Shown: positions 3,893-47,776 of the stretch, piece after piece | Layout of the letters: each line of letters begins with the position of its first letter | Numbering within the stretch: the first letter of the stretch is position 1 | Virus record (IMG/VR): IMGVR_UViG_3300032312_001422 | Location: 1-64,000 of that record | Strand: one strand, 5' to 3' | Source: a virus | Lineage: Duplodnaviria; Caudoviricetes | Length of the DNA stretch: 64,000 bases | Position numbers and translations under genes: made by a program | Notes under the pieces: generated by a model | Databases searched by the model: none | The model's input: the letters and a program-made list of their open reading frames with translations, nothing else | What the model was told of the DNA's origin: nothing

Positions 3893-5311
3893 ATGACAGA
3901 CTATACACCTGAAATACAAAAACTATTTTTAGAAATGATGATGCAGGACGCACAGAGTTATGTGCGGGTGCAAAACATTTATAACCCAGAAAACTTTGAT
4001 AGAAGTTTACGAGATGTGGCCAAGTTTATTGCCACGCACTCGGCCGAATATAAAACACTTCCCACATACGAACAGATCAAGGCAGTAACTGGCATAGAGC
4101 TTAAACCTATTCCCACAGCCATTGATGGACATCAAGAATGGTTTATGCAGGAGTTTGAAGGCTTCAGCCGCAAGGAAGAACTGAGCAGAGCCATTCTCAA
4201 AGCCGCTGACTTATTGGAAGAAGGCGACTACGATCCTGTAGAAAAACTGATCAAAGACGCAGTACAAATATCATTGACCAAAGACTTGGGTACAGATTAC
4301 TTTGCTGATCCCAAAGCACGTATTGACCGGTATTACAACTCAGGCGGACAGGTGAGTACAGGCTGGCCAACTATGGACAAGATCTTGTACGGCGGTATGA
4401 GTCGTGGCGAACTAAACATTTTTGCTGGTGGTTCAGGATCAGGCAAGAGTTTGGTTATGATGAACATAGCACTCAGTTGGTTACAAGCGGGACTGTCGGG
4501 TGTATATGTGAGTTTAGAACTGAGTGAAGAACTTGTGGCCCTAAGAACAGATGCCATGTTGACTAGTACAGGTACAAAAGACATTCGCAAAGACATTGAA
4601 ACCACAGAACTCAAAGTCAAGATGGTGGGCAAGAAGTCTGGCAAGTATCGTATTAAAGCATTACCAGCACAAAGCAACGTAAATGACATCCGTAGCTTTA
4701 TCAAAGAATATCAAATACAAACCAACAACAAAGTAGACTTTGTCATGGTCGACTACTTGGATTTGGTAATGCCAGTCAGTGTCAAAGTCAATCCCAATGA
4801 TCAGTTTATCAAAGACAAATATGTGGCAGAAGAACTGCGTAATTTATCGCAAGAACTCAATGTGTTGTTTGTGACAGCTTCGCAGTTGAATCGTAGTGCA
4901 GTAGAAGAAATAGAATTTGACCACAGTCATATTGCTGGTGGTATCAGTAAGATCAACACAGCAGACAACGTGTTTGGTATTTTTACAAGTCGTGCTATGA
5001 AAGAACGTGGACGATATCAAATCCAGTGTATGAAAAGTCGTAGTAGTACAGGTGTTGGTATGAAGATTGACCTGGAGTACAATATTGAAACTATGCGTAT
5101 TACAGATCCGGGTGAAGAAGGGCAAGAAAGCTCGCATGGGCAATTTAGACCTGCGGCCAATATCCTAAATCAACTCAAACCCACAACCACACTTAATCCA
5201 GTGGTCAAAGAAGGATGGAACCTAGAAAAAGATACTGCACCACCTCCGGGCTCCAGTGTAGAAAGCAATAAATTAAAGCAAATGATTGCTGGCCTTAAGT
5301 CTAGGGAATAG
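3893..5311 (+). CDS. Replicative DnaB-like helicase (T4 gp41-like)
   Basis: Walker A GGSGSGKS, SLEL, VDYLD, TASQLNR, HIAGGISK motifs. Confidence 0.95.
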   Translation: MTDYTPEIQKLFLEMMMQDAQSYVRVQNIYNPENFDRSLRDVAKFIATHSAEYKTLPTYEQIKAVTGIELKPIPTAIDGHQEWFMQEFEGFSRKEELSRAILKAADLLEEGDYDPVEKLIKDAVQISLTKDLGTDYFADPKARIDRYYNSGGQVSTGWPTMDKILYGGMSRGELNIFAGGSGSGKSLVMMNIALSWLQAGLSGVYVSLELSEELVALRTDAMLTSTGTKDIRKDIETTELKVKMVGKKSGKYRIKALPAQSNVNDIRSFIKEYQIQTNNKVDFVMVDYLDLVMPVSVKVNPNDQFIKDKYVAEELRNLSQELNVLFVTASQLNRSAVEEIEFDHSHIAGGISKINTADNVFGIFTSRAMKERGRYQIQCMKSRSSTGVGMKIDLEYNIETMRITDPGEEGQESSHGQFRPAANILNQLKPTTTLNPVVKEGWNLEKDTAPPPGSSVESNKLKQMIAGLKSRE

Positions 5312-6371
5312 ATGCCAGTTGACAAAATTCAGGAAGATAATCGTGTATGCTGATGTCTTTTACAGAATCTTGTATGTGAACTATTTCTAATAGTTTTTTA
5401 AAATCTGCGTCATCTTGCTCAGTGTGTACGGTACCTAATAGAAATTCTAAATCCTTGGTAAGACCATATTTGCTAACAAGTTTATCTTTGACTGCTCGAG
5501 GTAATGCAGCTGGCCTAAAATGTCCTGGGTTAATCACTGGATTGAAATGATAATTCAAATTATTTTGATTGAACCATTCAATTGTGTCATGATGATACAT
5601 AACATTTAGATTACTAGTGGTATAGCTAACGCTGATGTTTTTGGTAATGGTTCTAAAAAAATCTAAATTCTCTAATAGCTTGTCCCATTTGAGTGGGTAC
5701 CGCATATATTCGAATACCGGACCAACTCCGTCAATACTCAAATTAAAGTTGAGATTTTTAAATTGTGCAAATATAGATTTTTGATTTGCATTTAGAGCAA
5801 CAGATCCATTGGTGGTGACAGCAATAAAACAATTGGTATTGCCATGTTCCAGTAGTTTTTCTAGTATGTAAAAATTCAGTTTTTCGTACAGGGGTTCGCC
5901 ACCAACCAAATTAAGCATTACTAAATTTTTATAATCTAAATTGTCATCAATTTGTTCTTGGGTCATTGATTCCGACACAGCAGGAACTAATCCAATTTTT
6001 TTCTCTAACGGCGCCCAGGCACTAGATGGACCAGAACCACAAGTGACACAGGTACTGTTGCAGGTATTGCTGGTACTGTTTTTGATCATAATGGGCTGAT
6101 ACTGCCCGTCACGAACTTGCTGTTCAATAAATTTGATATCTTTGTCTAGGTAAAAATCCAATGCGGAATTTTTAAGTTTGCGATCACTGATTAGCCCGGC
6201 ATCTTCTAGTTTCCAACAGGCTGAACAAAATGGAGATTTTTGTTTGGATAAAATGTCATTTCTTAGAGAATCTATGTTATAATCTTTAGGTAGCAAACAA
6301 CAATGTGTGCCTTTGCCTTTGGTTTGAAATTCGTAGCCAAAAAATGGTAATACACAGAAATAATCGTTCAT
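5301..6371 (-). CDS. Radical SAM enzyme
   Basis: CxxxCxxC (CNSTCVTC), GGEPL, TTNGS, LSIDG, extra Cys cluster at the N-terminus; own TAAATA on the minus strand near 6378-6383. Confidence 0.9.
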   Translation of the reverse strand: MNDYFCVLPFFGYEFQTKGKGTHCCLLPKDYNIDSLRNDILSKQKSPFCSACWKLEDAGLISDRKLKNSALDFYLDKDIKFIEQQVRDGQYQPIMIKNSTSNTCNSTCVTCGSGPSSAWAPLEKKIGLVPAVSESMTQEQIDDNLDYKNLVMLNLVGGEPLYEKLNFYILEKLLEHGNTNCFIAVTTNGSVALNANQKSIFAQFKNLNFNLSIDGVGPVFEYMRYPLKWDKLLENLDFFRTITKNISVSYTTSNLNVMYHHDTIEWFNQNNLNYHFNPVINPGHFRPAALPRAVKDKLVSKYGLTKDLEFLLGTVHTEQDDADFKKLLEIVHIQDSVKDISIHDYLPEFCQLASIP

Positions 6372-12793: not shown

Positions 12794-12822
12794 TTGACAA
12801 ACCCAATTAAATACGTTATAAT
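12794..12822 (+). promoter_or_regulatory. sigma70-type promoter for iscU-iscA-exonuclease
   Basis: TTGACA-17-TATAAT, perfect consensus. Confidence 0.85.
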
Positions 12823-12840
12823 AGCGTAAGGAGTGTATCT

Positions 12841-43689: not shown

Positions 43690-45741
43690 ATGAAGTTTAA
43701 AAAAATAGTTGTGGCTATAGCAATAGCCTTTGCGACTTCGGCCGCTCTGGCTCAGAACTCTGTATTACAAAACGAATATATTAAAGCAGGTGTCAATGAA
43801 ACAACAGGCACATTGGGTTCTGGTGGCAACACCAGCCCTGGCCTGTTGTACAACAACGCAGGTTCCAGCACCTGGAACACAGCATACGATTACCTAACAC
43901 CTGGAAGTCCTTTTGAAGGCTTTACGGTACGTATTGAGGACTCAGCCGGTACATTAATTAATACATATACAAACAATAACACTGGTATTCGTAACCTAAC
44001 TGGAGCCTGGGTCGGATCACCATCAAGCAGTAGTGCAGTATGGGCCGGCTCTAACTCACAGTTTGCACTACAGCATACTTACAGTTTGCCAAGTGGTCAA
44101 AAGTACATTGATATTGACACACGCATTGAAGCATACATTGCCATGCCTAAGTTATGGTTTGGTCGATTCATTGACCCAGATGCAGTAGCAGCCGCAGGTG
44201 ACAGTTCGGCAACCGACAACGTGCTAGGCTACGGTGCTATCAGTCGTAACAACGTGGTGTTCTCTGAAGCCACAGTGAGTCGTTATGCATTAGGCCTGTA
44301 CTCGGCACAGTCCAACGTCAAAGCCGGTATTGCAGGATGGTCAACAGATCCCAAAGCATACTATGCCAACGGTACAGCAGGCTACGGCACCTATACTGAC
44401 AACACATACGGCAACGGTGACGATACCATTGGCTTAGGTTTTTACATGGGCGGCGTCAGCATTGGAGACATTGTAAACTTCCGTTATGCTTATATCTTTG
44501 GACCAAGTGCGTTTGGTGCAGCCGAATCGGCAGTGGCCGGCGGCGCAGGCGGCGGCACACCTGGTACAGTTCCAGGTGGCGGCACATTAGTAGACGTTGG
44601 GTCAGCAACTGATTCAGCAAGCACAGGTGGTTCAAGTGCACCTACTGTAACAGGTACGACTACAGCAACCATCACAGTTAGTGATGTAACCGCAGTAAAT
44701 ACCGTATTGCCTGTGATTACCGGCAGTATTGCACACCACGTGGCCACAGAAGCCACAGGCAAGCAAACCATTGCTCGTGAAACCACAACCAGTGTAACAA
44801 CACCAATGCGTCGTGATGTTACAACACTTGTAAGAACTACAAGTACCTGGAGTGACGGCACAACAACAACCAGTGATAGTGACGCAACAACAGCAACAAC
44901 ACTAAGCAACAATGTAGATACCAGCATTGCCAACGACAGTTTTTCAGGACGCATTGATCAACAAGCAGTATTGAACACCTTAAACAAAGGTCTTGGTCGC
45001 TCACTGGACATGAACGCTTTCCGTGCAGATGGTATTCGTACAGAAAATGGTCGTATGTACATCAATGGTGGTAGTGCTAAAACTGCTGGTCAAAACGGAT
45101 ACAATGCCACAAGTCGTTTATACGGTGTAGGTGTAGAAGTTAATGTTGATCGTGATTGGGCTGTTGGTGCACAGTTTAACAAAGTCAACACAACATTAAA
45201 TGGGGTTGACAGCACAACCGGTCAGGACAAAACACACTTTGGTTTGTTCAGCGTATTGGATATTGAAGGTGCCAAGTTGGTCAACAATATTGGTTATGCA
45301 CAAAACGATATCAAATCCAATCGTACTATTCGTGGCATTGACTTCAACAACAGTCACTCAACCACAGGCAGTGACTTGTGGACCAGTGTTAGATTGTACA
45401 GTCCAGATTATGCAGGCTTTCGTCCGTTTGTGGGTGGTGCTGTTGGTCGTCAACAAGTTGGTGGTTATACCGAAGCCGGTAGTATTCAAAGTTATCGTGT
45501 AGTAGGCAGTGAAAATACCAGTTATCGTTACGGTGAAGGTGGCCTGCGTTACGAAGCCAAACTAGACGACTTTACAGCAGCAACTGAATTGTCAGCCACA
45601 ACTGATCAGTTTAAAACAGCTGCAGTGAGTTTGGCATATGATGTAAACAAGTACAGCGTAGTTGCTGTTACTGGTCAACGTCAGATCAATCCTACTGTAT
45701 CAACTAACTTGGTTAATTTAACTTTAATGGTTAGATTCTAA
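43690..45741 (+). CDS. Autotransporter-like outer membrane beta-barrel protein
   Basis: Signal peptide, Gly/Thr-rich passenger, amphipathic strands (RPFVGG..G...V.GYTE.GS), C-terminal Phe. Confidence 0.8.
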   Translation: MKFKKIVVAIAIAFATSAALAQNSVLQNEYIKAGVNETTGTLGSGGNTSPGLLYNNAGSSTWNTAYDYLTPGSPFEGFTVRIEDSAGTLINTYTNNNTGIRNLTGAWVGSPSSSSAVWAGSNSQFALQHTYSLPSGQKYIDIDTRIEAYIAMPKLWFGRFIDPDAVAAAGDSSATDNVLGYGAISRNNVVFSEATVSRYALGLYSAQSNVKAGIAGWSTDPKAYYANGTAGYGTYTDNTYGNGDDTIGLGFYMGGVSIGDIVNFRYAYIFGPSAFGAAESAVAGGAGGGTPGTVPGGGTLVDVGSATDSASTGGSSAPTVTGTTTATITVSDVTAVNTVLPVITGSIAHHVATEATGKQTIARETTTSVTTPMRRDVTTLVRTTSTWSDGTTTTSDSDATTATTLSNNVDTSIANDSFSGRIDQQAVLNTLNKGLGRSLDMNAFRADGIRTENGRMYINGGSAKTAGQNGYNATSRLYGVGVEVNVDRDWAVGAQFNKVNTTLNGVDSTTGQDKTHFGLFSVLDIEGAKLVNNIGYAQNDIKSNRTIRGIDFNNSHSTTGSDLWTSVRLYSPDYAGFRPFVGGAVGRQQVGGYTEAGSIQSYRVVGSENTSYRYGEGGLRYEAKLDDFTAATELSATTDQFKTAAVSLAYDVNKYSVVAVTGQRQINPTVSTNLVNLTLMVRF

Positions 45742-45742
45742 G

Positions 45743-45777
45743 ATGTAATACAAATGTAATATTCTAAGACTTAAATA
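45743..45777 (+). promoter_or_regulatory. Pho-box-like site 1 plus TAAATA
   Basis: ATGTAAT-ACAA-ATGTAAT (11-bp direct repeat) matches CTGTCAT-N4-CTGTMAY; TTAAAT follows after 10 nt. Confidence 0.6.
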
Positions 45778-45786
45778 ATCTTAGCG

Positions 45787-45824
45787 GACACAAAGATGGG
45801 GTGTCACTGGAACCCGTAACCAGT
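45787..45824 (+). ncRNA. Candidate two-hairpin RNA with complementary loops
   Basis: GACAC/GTGTC and ACTGG/CCAGT stems; loops contain ATGGG and CCCGT. Confidence 0.35.
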
Positions 45825-45866
45825 AACAATTCTGTAATATCTTTGCAACACCTTGAGCGATAAATA
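45821..45866 (+). promoter_or_regulatory. Pho-box-like array 2 plus TAAATA
   Basis: CAGTAAC-AATT-CTGTAAT-ATCT-TTGCAAC, three half-sites in 11-bp register, directly upstream of the plcP-like ATG. Confidence 0.55.
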
Positions 45867-46663
45867 TGGTTATGACAGCCAAAACTTATCGCTCAATTTT
45901 TATTAGTGACATACACTTTGGCACTAGAGATTGCAAAGCCGAACAACTCAACAACTTTCTCAAACACAACACCTGTGAAACACTTTACCTAGTGGGCGAC
46001 ATCATCGACGCCTGGAAGATTCAACAAAACAAATGGCGATGGAAACAAAGCCACACCAATGCAATCAGACGAATATTAGGACACGCTAAACGTGGTACTC
46101 GAGTGATCTATGTGGCTGGCAACCACGATGAGTTCCTGAGACCACTCATACCTTACGGCATGGGATTTGGACGTGTTGAAATAACAAATCAAACAGAACA
46201 CATCGGGGTAGATGGCAAAACATATTTGGTCACCCACGGAGACCTGTTTGATGGTATTACCAGGTTAGCACCTTGGTTAAGTTTCTTAGGTGATAAACTG
46301 TACGATCTAGTATTGGATTGGAACAGCAGATTCAACTGGATCAGACACAAACTAGGCTTTGGCTACTGGTCGTTAAGCAAGTATCTTAAACATCGTGTTA
46401 AAAAAGCCGCGGACTTTATGTTTCAATTTGAAATTAATCTAGCAACCTACTGCAAGAAGCGTGGCTTTGATGGTGTGATCTGTGGACACATACATCATGC
46501 AGAGATAAAAACTATAGATGGCGTCATATATATGAATGATGGCGACTGGGTAGAATCAATGACTGCCTTGGTTGAGCATCATGACGGTAAGTGGGAAATA
46601 GTAACTTGGACAAAGACACACGACGATGTGGATACTGATACTGTTGGCAGTTCACACCAATAA
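45866..46663 (+). CDS. plcP: PlcP-like phospholipase C (calcineurin-like metallophosphoesterase, often annotated UDP-2,3-diacylglucosamine hydrolase)
   Basis: YRSIFISDIHFG, LVGDIID.W, AGNHDE, THGD.FD, CGHIHH, YMNDGDWVES.TALVE; GNHD rather than the GNRD of canonical LpxH; paired with agt-like GT. Confidence 0.75.
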   Translation: MVMTAKTYRSIFISDIHFGTRDCKAEQLNNFLKHNTCETLYLVGDIIDAWKIQQNKWRWKQSHTNAIRRILGHAKRGTRVIYVAGNHDEFLRPLIPYGMGFGRVEITNQTEHIGVDGKTYLVTHGDLFDGITRLAPWLSFLGDKLYDLVLDWNSRFNWIRHKLGFGYWSLSKYLKHRVKKAADFMFQFEINLATYCKKRGFDGVICGHIHHAEIKTIDGVIYMNDGDWVESMTALVEHHDGKWEIVTWTKTHDDVDTDTVGSSHQ

Positions 46664-46799
46664 CCCGCAAGACATACCCGGACGAGTAACAATTGAGTTT
46701 GCTACCGAATCCGAATGCTTACGAGCCCAAAGCACAGTTCAATACTGGCTCAAGTTTGATAGTTTCAAGGTAAGTACACGATGTCAAAAACAATCTTAA
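46626..46799 (+). CDS. Small exported protein (57 aa, not in ORF track)
   Basis: MWILILLAVH...ECLRA...STRCQKQS; hydrophobic start, two Cys; bridges the plcP and agt ORFs. Confidence 0.55.
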   Translation: MWILILLAVHTNNPQDIPGRVTIEFATESECLRAQSTVQYWLKFDSFKVSTRCQKQS

Positions 46800-47776
46800 T
46801 CATAACAGACAATGTCCCAGATCAAATCAACGGCGTGGTCACAACTTTCACAAACCTGGAAGATCATGCTAGGCGTGATGGGTATAGTGTTGTTTATTGT
46901 CATCCCGGGCAGTTCCCTAATTTTGCTTGCCCTGGTTATCCTGAAGTTCGCTTGTGCTGGCCGCACGGTATCAGTAAGAAAATTAAAGCGATACAGCCAG
47001 ATTATATACACATCGCTACGGAAGGGCCAGTAGGCCTGTTTGCTCGTTGGTGGTGTGAACGCAATCATATACCCTACAATACCAGTTATCACACAGACTT
47101 TCCTGAATTCCTGCGTACCATGTACTGTGTACCAAAAAGTCTAACTTACTGGTACTTGCGTTGGTTTCACAAGAACAGTCATCGTGTGTTGGTTACTACA
47201 CGAACCATTGAGCAAGAATTATCCGGCCGTGGATTTTCTAATCTAGTTGTTTGGACCCGCGGTGTGCGTAGAGATCTAACACCAAGCCAAAAACGTTGTG
47301 AACGTACACGGCCCGTGTTGCTTAATGTAGGACGTGTCAGTGCTGAAAAAGGCCTGGCAGAATTATCCAAGTTGCAAGATGACTACACATTGGTCATTGT
47401 TGGGGATGGCCCATTTATGCCGCAGGCCCGGGAGTTATTGCCCAATGCCAAGTTTGTTGGATATAAATCTGGGCAAGAATTGGTTGATTATTATCACGAT
47501 GCTGATGTGTTTGTATTTCCAAGCCGAGCAGATACTTTTGGCCTAGTCATTATTGAAGCCATGGCGCAGGGCACTCCTGTTGCGGCATTTCCTGTACAAG
47601 GACCTGTGGACATCATTGAAACTGGTGTAAACGGCCACATGGAACAAGATTTAACTGTGGCAGTCAAAAAGTGTTTGACTCTTGATCGTCAACAAGTTAA
47701 AAAATCCAGTCAACGTTGGACTTGGCAAGAGTGTTGGAGTATCTTTAAGGACAATCTAGCAGTAATAAATACTTGA
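46781..47776 (+). CDS. GT4 glycosyltransferase, Agt-like glycolipid synthase
   Basis: TD..P.QINGVVTT, CPGYPEVRL, PD.IHIATEGP.G, YHT.FPE, LRWFH, VGRVSAEK, FVFPS..DTFGLV..EAMA.GTPVAA. Confidence 0.85.
   Translation: MSKTILIITDNVPDQINGVVTTFTNLEDHARRDGYSVVYCHPGQFPNFACPGYPEVRLCWPHGISKKIKAIQPDYIHIATEGPVGLFARWWCERNHIPYNTSYHTDFPEFLRTMYCVPKSLTYWYLRWFHKNSHRVLVTTRTIEQELSGRGFSNLVVWTRGVRRDLTPSQKRCERTRPVLLNVGRVSAEKGLAELSKLQDDYTLVIVGDGPFMPQARELLPNAKFVGYKSGQELVDYYHDADVFVFPSRADTFGLVIIEAMAQGTPVAAFPVQGPVDIIETGVNGHMEQDLTVAVKKCLTLDRQQVKKSSQRWTWQECWSIFKDNLAVINT

Follow-up and report, generated by a model that had tools for sequence, protein, structure and literature searches.

Candidate Pho-box promoters built on a TAAATA core in front of plcP in an uncultured T4-like jumbo lake phage

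The plcP locus and its two arrays

The DNA analysed here, a 64-kb stretch that we call the window, is the first part of one 288,815-bp virus record with 42% G+C, classed as linear and about 80% complete by CheckV. Its source is an uncultured T4-like jumbo lake phage. Its genes bear out the T4-like assignment: among them are one for a late sigma factor resembling gp55 (T4 gp55 query, E 1e-5; phrog_12791, E 5.8e-81), which is adjoined by SbcD-/SbcC-like nuclease genes, and genes for baseplate and virion. A reading of the DNA as bacterial chromosome, suggested by its CsgG, FecR and cyclase genes, was dropped, as this is a virus record in which gp55, virion and baseplate genes are present.

Within the window, a 124-nt spacer between a gene at 43690..45741 and a PlcP-like gene holds two Pho-box-like arrays and two TAAATA hexamers. 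The upstream gene encodes 683 aa without a family match, and its product, which ends in ...MVRF, is outer-membrane-barrel-like. The downstream gene had been called plcP, and Pfam places its product among the metallophosphoesterases; behind it comes a GT4 Agt-like glycosyltransferase, and the plcP-agt pair is also found in relatives. The features of the locus are as follows.

45743..45760, + strand: distal Pho-box-like dimer ATGTAAT-ACAA-ATGTAAT (E. coli PhoB matrix score 8.42)
45772..45777, + strand: distal TAAATA core, 11 nt after the distal box (predicted start about 45783)
45782..45825, + strand: two-hairpin RNA motif with a covarying loop-loop pair (alignment of 41 sequences)
45821..45838, + strand: proximal strong Pho-box-like dimer CAGTAAC-AATT-CTGTAAT (E. 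coli-matrix rank 2 of 577,630)
45843..45849, + strand: third, weaker half-site TTGCAAC, ending 11 nt before TAAATA (the array of three has rank 1)
45853..45896, + strand: long hairpin with arms 45853-45863/45886-45896 and inner stem 45867-45871/45877-45881 (dG -18.3 kcal/mol, z -4.5)
45861..45866, + strand: proximal TAAATA core in the context GATAAATA, with A at -1
45872..46663, + strand: PlcP-like metallophosphoesterase, calcineurin-type (Pfam Metallophos 3.5e-11)
46781..47776, + strand: GT4 glycosyltransferase, Agt-like, second gene of the unit (Pfam Glycos_transf_1 2.2e-23, Glyco_transf_4 7.4e-16)

Both arrays and both hexamers were found again as first described, with 11 nt between each array and its TAAATA; the distal hexamer reads CTTAAATA in context. 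We scored the arrays with a PhoB matrix made from 14 half-sites read from E. coli phoA, phoB, phoE, pstS and phnC (NC_000913), summing scores across two or three phased half-sites. By this matrix, which rests on E. coli promoters only, the proximal array ranks second as a dimer and first as a trimer among 577,630 positions, and the distal array ranks 144. The distal score is reached at 9 of 20,816 intergenic positions, three of which lie in this spacer, all on the gene strand. A second matrix, drawn from 23 bacterial pstS promoters, gives ranks of 10, 27 and 90, such that matrices of both origins rank the arrays high.

Counting both strands, the 288,815-bp genome has four copies of the repeat pair GTAAY-N6-GTAAY, of which only the two in these arrays are intergenic, for which reason we rejected a general phage promoter element. 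Searching for the box together with its core (box-N11-TAAATA, at most two mismatches) returned three matches in the genome versus none in a reversed control; the two best are the sites described here, the distal one with zero mismatches. Another high-scoring intergenic site, at 90011, has no promoter geometry. Given these ranks, intergenic counts and reversed control, similar scores are not common in AT-rich spacers, as they would be if base composition were the cause. AT-rich background does not account for the arrays, and the observation is far above chance. The likeness extends to an individual box: repeats 2-3 of the proximal array resemble the E. coli phoE box CTGTAAT-ATAT-CTTTAAC.

The hexamer itself had been described as late-type, a label that its distribution supports. 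Within co-directional spacers, TAAATA occurs 39 times in the sense and twice in the antisense orientation, where shuffles give 12.4; its position peaks 21-30 nt before start codons, and the base preceding it is A in 44 of 66 genomic sites. A separate sigma-70 class is marked by TTGACw-N16-18-TAyAmT promoters (8 sense, 0 antisense). Published T4-type late motifs are TATAAATA in T4 and KVP40 and NATAAATA in cyanomyoviruses (PMC2984593), and the phage motif matches the latter. TAAATA thus has the properties of a T4-type late-promoter core, being TATAAATA-like, oriented and placed shortly before starts. Further, as with T4-type late promoters, an ATAAATA-like core precedes many genes, a gp55 homologue is present and MotA-type middle promoters are unneeded.

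The plcP start, its hairpin and a small structured RNA

A second, sharp class of sites has TAAATA exactly 5 nt before an ATG without a Shine-Dalgarno sequence; it comprises seven genes plus plcP when plcP is read from 45872. The last A of the proximal TAAATA is also the A of a first ATG (45866), but only the second ATG (45872) is conserved in relatives, as TAAATA-N4/5-ATG. Judged by this alignment, the ATG at 45866 is an accident of TAAATATGG, and plcP probably starts at the second ATG, 5 nt after TAAATA and without a Shine-Dalgarno sequence. A start at that position implies a leaderless plcP mRNA. As a -10 for an mRNA whose 5' end lies before the 45866 ATG, the proximal TAAATA is impossible: its position agrees only with leaderless transcription and use of the second ATG. 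T4 late promoters start transcription about 6 nt after the core, a rule by which the mRNAs of the whole N5 class would be leaderless, and the small-RNA motif described below, which begins about 5 nt after its own TAAATA, supports the same rule.

The plcP start is also embedded in a long hairpin that encloses TAAATA, the 5-nt spacer and the AUG, which sits in the apical loop, and that is followed by the U-rich UUUUUAUU (45897-45904). Among 37 distinct relatives, 28 preserve this pairing: the 14 nt up to and including the TAA of TAAATA pair without a break, over 10-14 positions, with Thr-Tyr-Arg-Ser-Ile codons. The arms track synonymous codon changes, with a relative's own arms averaging 10.1 contiguous pairs and swapped arms 6.4. 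Pairing with codons explains the conserved GCGA before TAAATA, and it also explains the ATACT-type sigma-70 -10 that appears between box and TAAATA in some relatives, which pairs with the Ser-Ile codons in the hairpin, is absent from the window and was rejected as a promoter element. The hairpin is not a general trait of the leaderless N5 class, as only two of ten others fold well. Because the hairpin covaries, transcripts from upstream of 45853 appear to matter, whereas a purely leaderless model needs none. The hairpin and its U-rich run might terminate such upstream transcripts, while those that start inside the loop would escape.

Both boxes had been assigned to plcP, which held for the proximal box only; the distal box and its TAAATA look instead like the promoter of a separate small RNA that has its own terminator in relatives. 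There, a conserved element of 44 nt with two hairpins comes after box and TAAATA, and an intrinsic terminator closes the unit (5625-5730 in L081; also L006 and L026), and in many relatives a 52-aa gene lies between this RNA unit and plcP. In the window no terminator follows the RNA element, the small gene is lacking, and the element abuts the proximal box. Alignment A1, with 41 instances of the element, has 14 invariant columns. Its paired positions are filled by pairing bases in 93.5% of cells, compared with 79% after shuffling and 29-46% with slid partners; double changes occur in 75 cells versus 16 when shuffled and affect 7 of the 12 pairs. The covarying loop-loop pair is GC in 17 sequences, AU in 14, GU in 4 and CG in 3. 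RNA model R1 gives the copy in the window 60.2 bits, by construction. Searches of Rfam gave no match to the motif, nor was it found in 44 bacterial pstS and plcP loci. Of the 56 unique copies, some follow Pho-box promoters, some come right after the stop codon of pstS, and others are elsewhere in the neighbourhood of plcP; the association is partly built in, as the copies come from loci selected for P genes.

Conservation among relatives and the genes behind the motif

In IMG/VR, a PlcP with 81-96% identity to that of the phage is found on at least 596 contigs, and the best 120 PlcP database proteins lie on phage-like contigs of up to 355 kb. Matches at 81-82% in Haliscomenobacter, 'Gammaproteobacteria' and Chitinophagia MAGs seem to stem from phage contigs that were mis-binned. 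The best true bacterial matches are 57-60% identical, come from mixed classes and point to no one host, betaproteobacterial or other; at that distance from the nearest bacterial PlcP, the capture of plcP would be old.

TAAATA stands shortly before the plcP start in about 50 of 80 fetched loci, and a box accompanies it in all but four of 40 distinct forms; in the remaining loci plcP overlaps the preceding gene and has no promoter. The order before plcP in relatives begins with the stop codon of a varying upstream gene, continues with two TGTAAY half-sites 11 bp apart and, after 21-22 nt, TAAATA, and ends 4-5 nt later at the ATG. The 34 distinct plcP promoters give the consensus nTGTAAC-AaAa-CTGTAAT, 21-22 nt, TAAATA, N4-5, ATG, with half-site cores at 2.0 bits per column and varying flanks. 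TAAATA is present in all 34 of these box-bearing promoters and no locus has the box without it, although the alignment is anchored on TAAATA itself. In 31 of 40 unique relatives a dimer scoring at least 8 lies 21-22 nt before TAAATA.

The spacing of repeats 1 and 2 is conserved across the 34 promoters, whereas the third repeat is degenerate: its frame holds 0.2-0.7 bits per column and is weakly conserved. By this comparison, the three-repeat proximal array amounts to a strong dimer, which is conserved, and a weak site nearer the core. In one relative, L029, the dimer lies 11 nt from TAAATA, like that of the distal module. Homologues of the distal box precede the small RNA as GTGTAAC-GCAA-CTGTCAT (L009/L144) and ATGTAAC-TAAA-CAGTCAC (L081), and the half-site variants seen in relatives include GTAAC, GTAAT, GTCAT and GTCAC.

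We also scanned IMG/VR (2.9 million viral contigs) for TGTAAY-N5-TGTMAY-N10/11-TAAATA without regard to genes. It gave 85 unique sites, and an ORF lies behind 78 of these: 34 encode PlcP, 22 PstS (PF12849, E 1.6e-36) and one a Na/Pi cotransporter (PF02690). Further metallophosphoesterases lie behind other sites, several sites precede the small RNA, and those with a 10-nt gap are mostly before unrelated ORFs. Approached from the other side, phage pstS loci picked by protein similarity alone have a box, 10 nt and TTAAATA in 20 of 55 unique promoters; a second group of phage pstS promoters has a different arrangement. The motif thus stands before pstS, a canonical Pho regulon gene, and this is the strongest argument for PhoB as the factor involved. 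pstS itself was not found in this phage genome or in five large relatives. The genome does encode PhoH (111906-112526), near which there is neither a repeat-pair match nor a high-scoring match to the PhoB matrix.

The proposal that the repeats are Pho boxes has good computational support in their sequence, 11-bp phasing, orientation, rarity and conservation, and in their association with pstS, plcP and a Na/Pi cotransporter gene. The identity of the motif, how rare and how conserved it is, its fixed geometry and the genes it accompanies are direct observations. From these we infer PhoB binding, the start sites and the form of polymerase used.

Host regulator, phage core and the phosphate status of the host

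E. coli Pho boxes are followed after exactly 10 nt by a -10 hexamer (TATAGT, CATAAT, TAAAAA, TATTTT). We compared the phage with bacterial pstS promoters chosen because their PstS is closest to phage PstS; among the 23 with a strong box, TAnnnT lies at exactly 10 nt in 13 and at 9 or 11 nt in none, and TAAATA occurs in none. The phage promoters resemble those of proteobacterial PhoB in their 7-bp CTGTMAY half-sites, 11-bp period, orientation towards the gene and, apparently, a box in place of the -35 about one turn before the hexamer. They differ in having an invariant TAAATA at 11 nt, in half-sites with TGTAA more often than TGTCA and, in the plcP promoters, in a strong dimer 21-22 nt from the core, one helical turn further upstream, with a degenerate third repeat. 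TAAATA also lacks the final T of TAnnnT, and a hexamer taken at 10 nt reads NTAAAT, without A at position 2; E. coli phoE, with TAAAAA, is a partial precedent for a -10 without a final T. As TAnnnT, where these bacterial promoters have it, lies at exactly 10 nt and TAAATA never occurs in them, the phage hexamer at 11 nt is no standard -10 for sigma-70 with PhoB. We read the retention of a host-type box together with an invariant phage-type core one base further on as a sign of selection on both parts.

The explanation that we prefer, at a probability of roughly one half, is that the spacer contains two composite promoters, served by PhoB and sigma-70 polymerase in a starved host and also used late through TAAATA by gp55 polymerase. 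On this account one design is present twice: a proteobacterial-type Pho box (direct TGTMAY repeats, 11-bp period), 11 nt and TAAATA. When the host is starved of phosphate, PhoB~P would occupy the boxes and bring in RNA polymerase. From the distal promoter, transcription would begin at about 45783 and yield the small structured RNA; from the proximal one, it would begin at the A of the 45872 ATG or beside it and yield a leaderless plcP-agt mRNA, whose products would remove phosphate from host phospholipids and convert these into glycolipids. TAAATA would have two users: sigma-70 polymerase with PhoB, for which it would be a weak -10 that depends on the activator, and gp55 late polymerase, for which it would be the recognition core. 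PhoB makes its activating contact with sigma-70 region 4, which the gp55 holoenzyme lacks, and T4-type late promoters need no upstream element; for these two reasons we favour such dual use, by analogy with the overlapping early/late promoters proposed for RB49 and S-PM2. Overlapping promoters of that kind are an accepted device in T4-like phages without MotA (PMC2984593). There, an ordinary -35/-10 early promoter is involved, unlike here, where a host response-regulator box precedes the core at fixed phase. Host phosphate status probably controls these phage genes.

A more radical possibility, at which the first-pass annotation hinted, is direct activation by host PhoB~P of the late holoenzyme with gp55 at TAAATA, gating late transcription by phosphate status. 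The hexamer is, after all, present in 34 of 34 box-bearing plcP promoters, is the same core as the oriented late-type motif of a genome that encodes a gp55 homologue, is absent from all 23 bacterial PhoB promoters, where the hexamer at 10 nt varies within TAnnnT, and at plcP keeps the TAAATA-N5-ATG spacing common to seven other genes. We nevertheless think direct activation unlikely, as PhoB works through a sigma-70 region that gp55 does not have, a box would add little to a late promoter unless basal late activity were low, and a gp45 clamp homologue was not found with two queries (T4 gp45 protein, PF02916) in a contig about 80% complete. Distinctly doubtful, too, is its combination with the hairpin: PhoB~P would act with gp55 polymerase, the plcP start would lie in the loop of a terminator-like hairpin from which only PhoB-gated transcripts escape, and the same switch would fire a new structured-RNA class of the phage phosphate island. 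If true, this would be a response regulator activating a holoenzyme without sigma-70 region 4.

Alternatively, these may be ordinary host-type PhoB/sigma-70 promoters in which TAAATA is the -10, resembles the late motif by coincidence or AT-richness and has no late function. The TAAAAA that lies 10 nt past the phoE box in E. coli indicates that a -10 without a final T can work with PhoB, and the T that precedes TAAATA in 18 of 20 phage pstS promoters, where generic sites have A in 44 of 66, hints at TTAAAT in a 10-nt frame. Yet the hexamer is invariant across diverged promoters when bacterial -10s vary at three positions; the 11-nt frame was never seen in the bacterial promoters that we read, the 10-nt frame puts T at the critical second position, and at the proximal site both the late context ATAAATA and the N5 spacing to the start are the generic ones. 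Taken together, these points make a purely host-type promoter improbable. That the repeats bind some other factor, either a CpxR- or OmpR-like regulator of the OmpR family or a phage DNA-binding protein unrelated to phosphate, strikes us as very doubtful. Direct repeats about one helical turn apart are typical of the whole OmpR/PhoB family, and GTAA half-sites also occur in CpxR and OmpR sites; against this stand a period of 11 bp rather than 10, half-sites in relatives that include GTCAT and GTCAC, as in the PhoB consensus, the pstS, plcP and Na/Pi cotransporter genes behind the motif across phages, and a search of the phage genome with PF00486 that found no OmpR/PhoB-type winged-helix DNA-binding domain. 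Least credible is that the boxes are a non-functional relic of the captured gene or a chance match. The intergenic site at 90011 scores high without promoter geometry, and for some phage Pho boxes that had been predicted, published work found neither PhoB binding nor a phosphate response (PMC10976474), but half-site cores at 2.0 bits with fixed spacing and varying flanks in 34 diverged promoters, their recurrence before unrelated P genes and before an RNA, and the old date of capture suggested by bacterial PlcP identities of 57-60% all argue against decay or chance.

The composite promoters that we favour have counterparts in known systems. Bacterial plcP clusters are reported with Pho boxes, and bacterial plcP-agt lipid-renovation operons share with the phage the gene pair and the predicted regulator (PMC4796936); the phage locus differs from them in a PlcP at most 60% identical, a phage-type -10, the lack of a Shine-Dalgarno sequence and a start codon inside a covarying hairpin. 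In cyanophages, host PhoBR control of phage genes and binding of PhoB to phage promoters have been published, including gel shifts for S-PM2d, with the caution that predicted phage Pho boxes can fail gel shifts and are unreliable without EMSA (PMC10976474). As there, the host phosphate two-component system would regulate captured phosphate-stress genes of a T4-like phage; pstS of P-SSM2 is cited in the same paper as under host PhoBR control, and promoters around cyanophage pstS are treated in PMC3037559. Cyanophage boxes follow PyTTAAPyPy(T/A), in the consensus quoted in PMC10976474, whereas those described here are of the proteobacterial TGTMAY type: the half-sites are TGTAAY/TGTCAY and not the 8-bp CTTAA-type repeats with a 3-bp spacer of cyanobacterial Pho boxes. 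Additionally, the cargo here is plcP-agt and a small RNA, and neither the rigid fusion to TAAATA nor the leaderless start is described for the cyanophage systems. Our literature search found no paper on phage-encoded plcP, on plcP-agt in phages or on a hybrid box-TAAATA promoter.

Phosphate limits microbes in lakes and oceans. To our knowledge, cyanophages, with boxes of the cyanobacterial type, are as yet the only phages in which genes have been shown to be under host PhoB control. A very large and abundant family of freshwater T4-like phages appears to have rebuilt the host Pho promoter around its own core, and the rebuilt promoters appear to be used for lipid remodelling genes, pstS and a new structured RNA. 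If confirmed, this would be a compact case of a virus reading the nutrient status of its host through a hybrid host/phage promoter, would raise the question of how a response regulator cooperates with a phage-modified polymerase, and would mean that genes annotated as 'LpxH' in virus surveys are phosphate-stress genes.

RNA structures at plcP and pstS

Two structured elements lie beside or across the start of plcP, the PlcP-like metallophosphoesterase gene:
45782-45825, conserved two-hairpin RNA of 44 nt
45853-45904, long hairpin that spans TAAATA, the plcP AUG and the spacer between them, with a U-rich run

Copies of the two-hairpin RNA recur in relatives (for example at L081:5658-5701, L026:2700-2745 and L196:5870-5913, loci fetched for plcP or pstS), with 56 unique copies counted within phage P-gene loci. 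Its loop-loop pair covaries, the loop segments CGUAA and ACAA are invariant, and it has no match in Rfam. Some copies form an independent small RNA that ends in a terminator of its own, and others follow pstS stop codons immediately; in a third arrangement, the one seen in the window, the element is joined to the plcP promoter. It may act as a small RNA, a 3' UTR element or a sensor of a ligand or protein.

In 28 of 37 relatives, the arms of the hairpin across the plcP start covary with synonymous Tyr-Arg-Ser codons. A U-rich run lies directly 3' of this hairpin, which may be a terminator for transcripts arriving from upstream, with the plcP start site within its loop.

Pho-box-like sites and P genes elsewhere

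In L081:5740-5800, a Pho-box-like pair lies in inverted orientation (GTTACAGTTATATTAC on the gene strand), an arrangement shared by L002, L003, L004, L006, L010, L011 and L051. A TTGACy-N17 promoter precedes a conserved 52-aa gene, which sits between the small RNA and plcP and is absent from the window, and the pair overlaps that promoter's -10 (TACAGT). As judged from sequence, this placement is that of a putative repressor site.

A second promoter group was seen upstream of pstS in L323, L331-L335, L338, L354 and L364: TTGTGAC-GGTT-CCGTTAC followed by TTTTAGTA in place of TAAATA. It may reflect another variant of box and core, or another group of hosts.

In the phage's whole record (G000), the second-best intergenic match to the E. 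coli PhoB matrix is:
G000:C1:90011-90028, CCGTAAC-AAAA-CTGTCAA

A stop codon lies directly 5' of this match, and an intrinsic terminator, rather than a -10, comes after it. The match precedes a gene for 124 aa, which is of unknown function and has a TAAATA of its own.

Several contigs binned in Haliscomenobacter, Gammaproteobacteria, Chitinophagia and Competibacteraceae MAGs (L085, L086, L119 and L087/L254) encode a PlcP of phage type (81-82% identical) or have pstS together with plcP on one 2.7-kb contig. They appear to be phage DNA wrongly assigned to bacterial bins.

TAAATA in other promoter settings

TAAATA also lies within the spacers of several sigma-70-like promoters (TTGACw-N17-TATAAT), 4 nt 5' of the -10:
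window 12800-12840
G000 150450-150490 and 151410-151460

From their sequences, such sites may combine an early and a late promoter that overlap.

In a further class of genes, TAAATA lies 4-6 nt (mostly exactly 5) 5' of the ATG:
window 5301-6371 (minus strand), 35379 and 56623
G000 90076, 109431, 120055, 228066 (minus strand), 246257, 283871 and 286118

Because this close spacing is coupled with the lack of a Shine-Dalgarno sequence, the class suggests that this phage produces leaderless late mRNAs.
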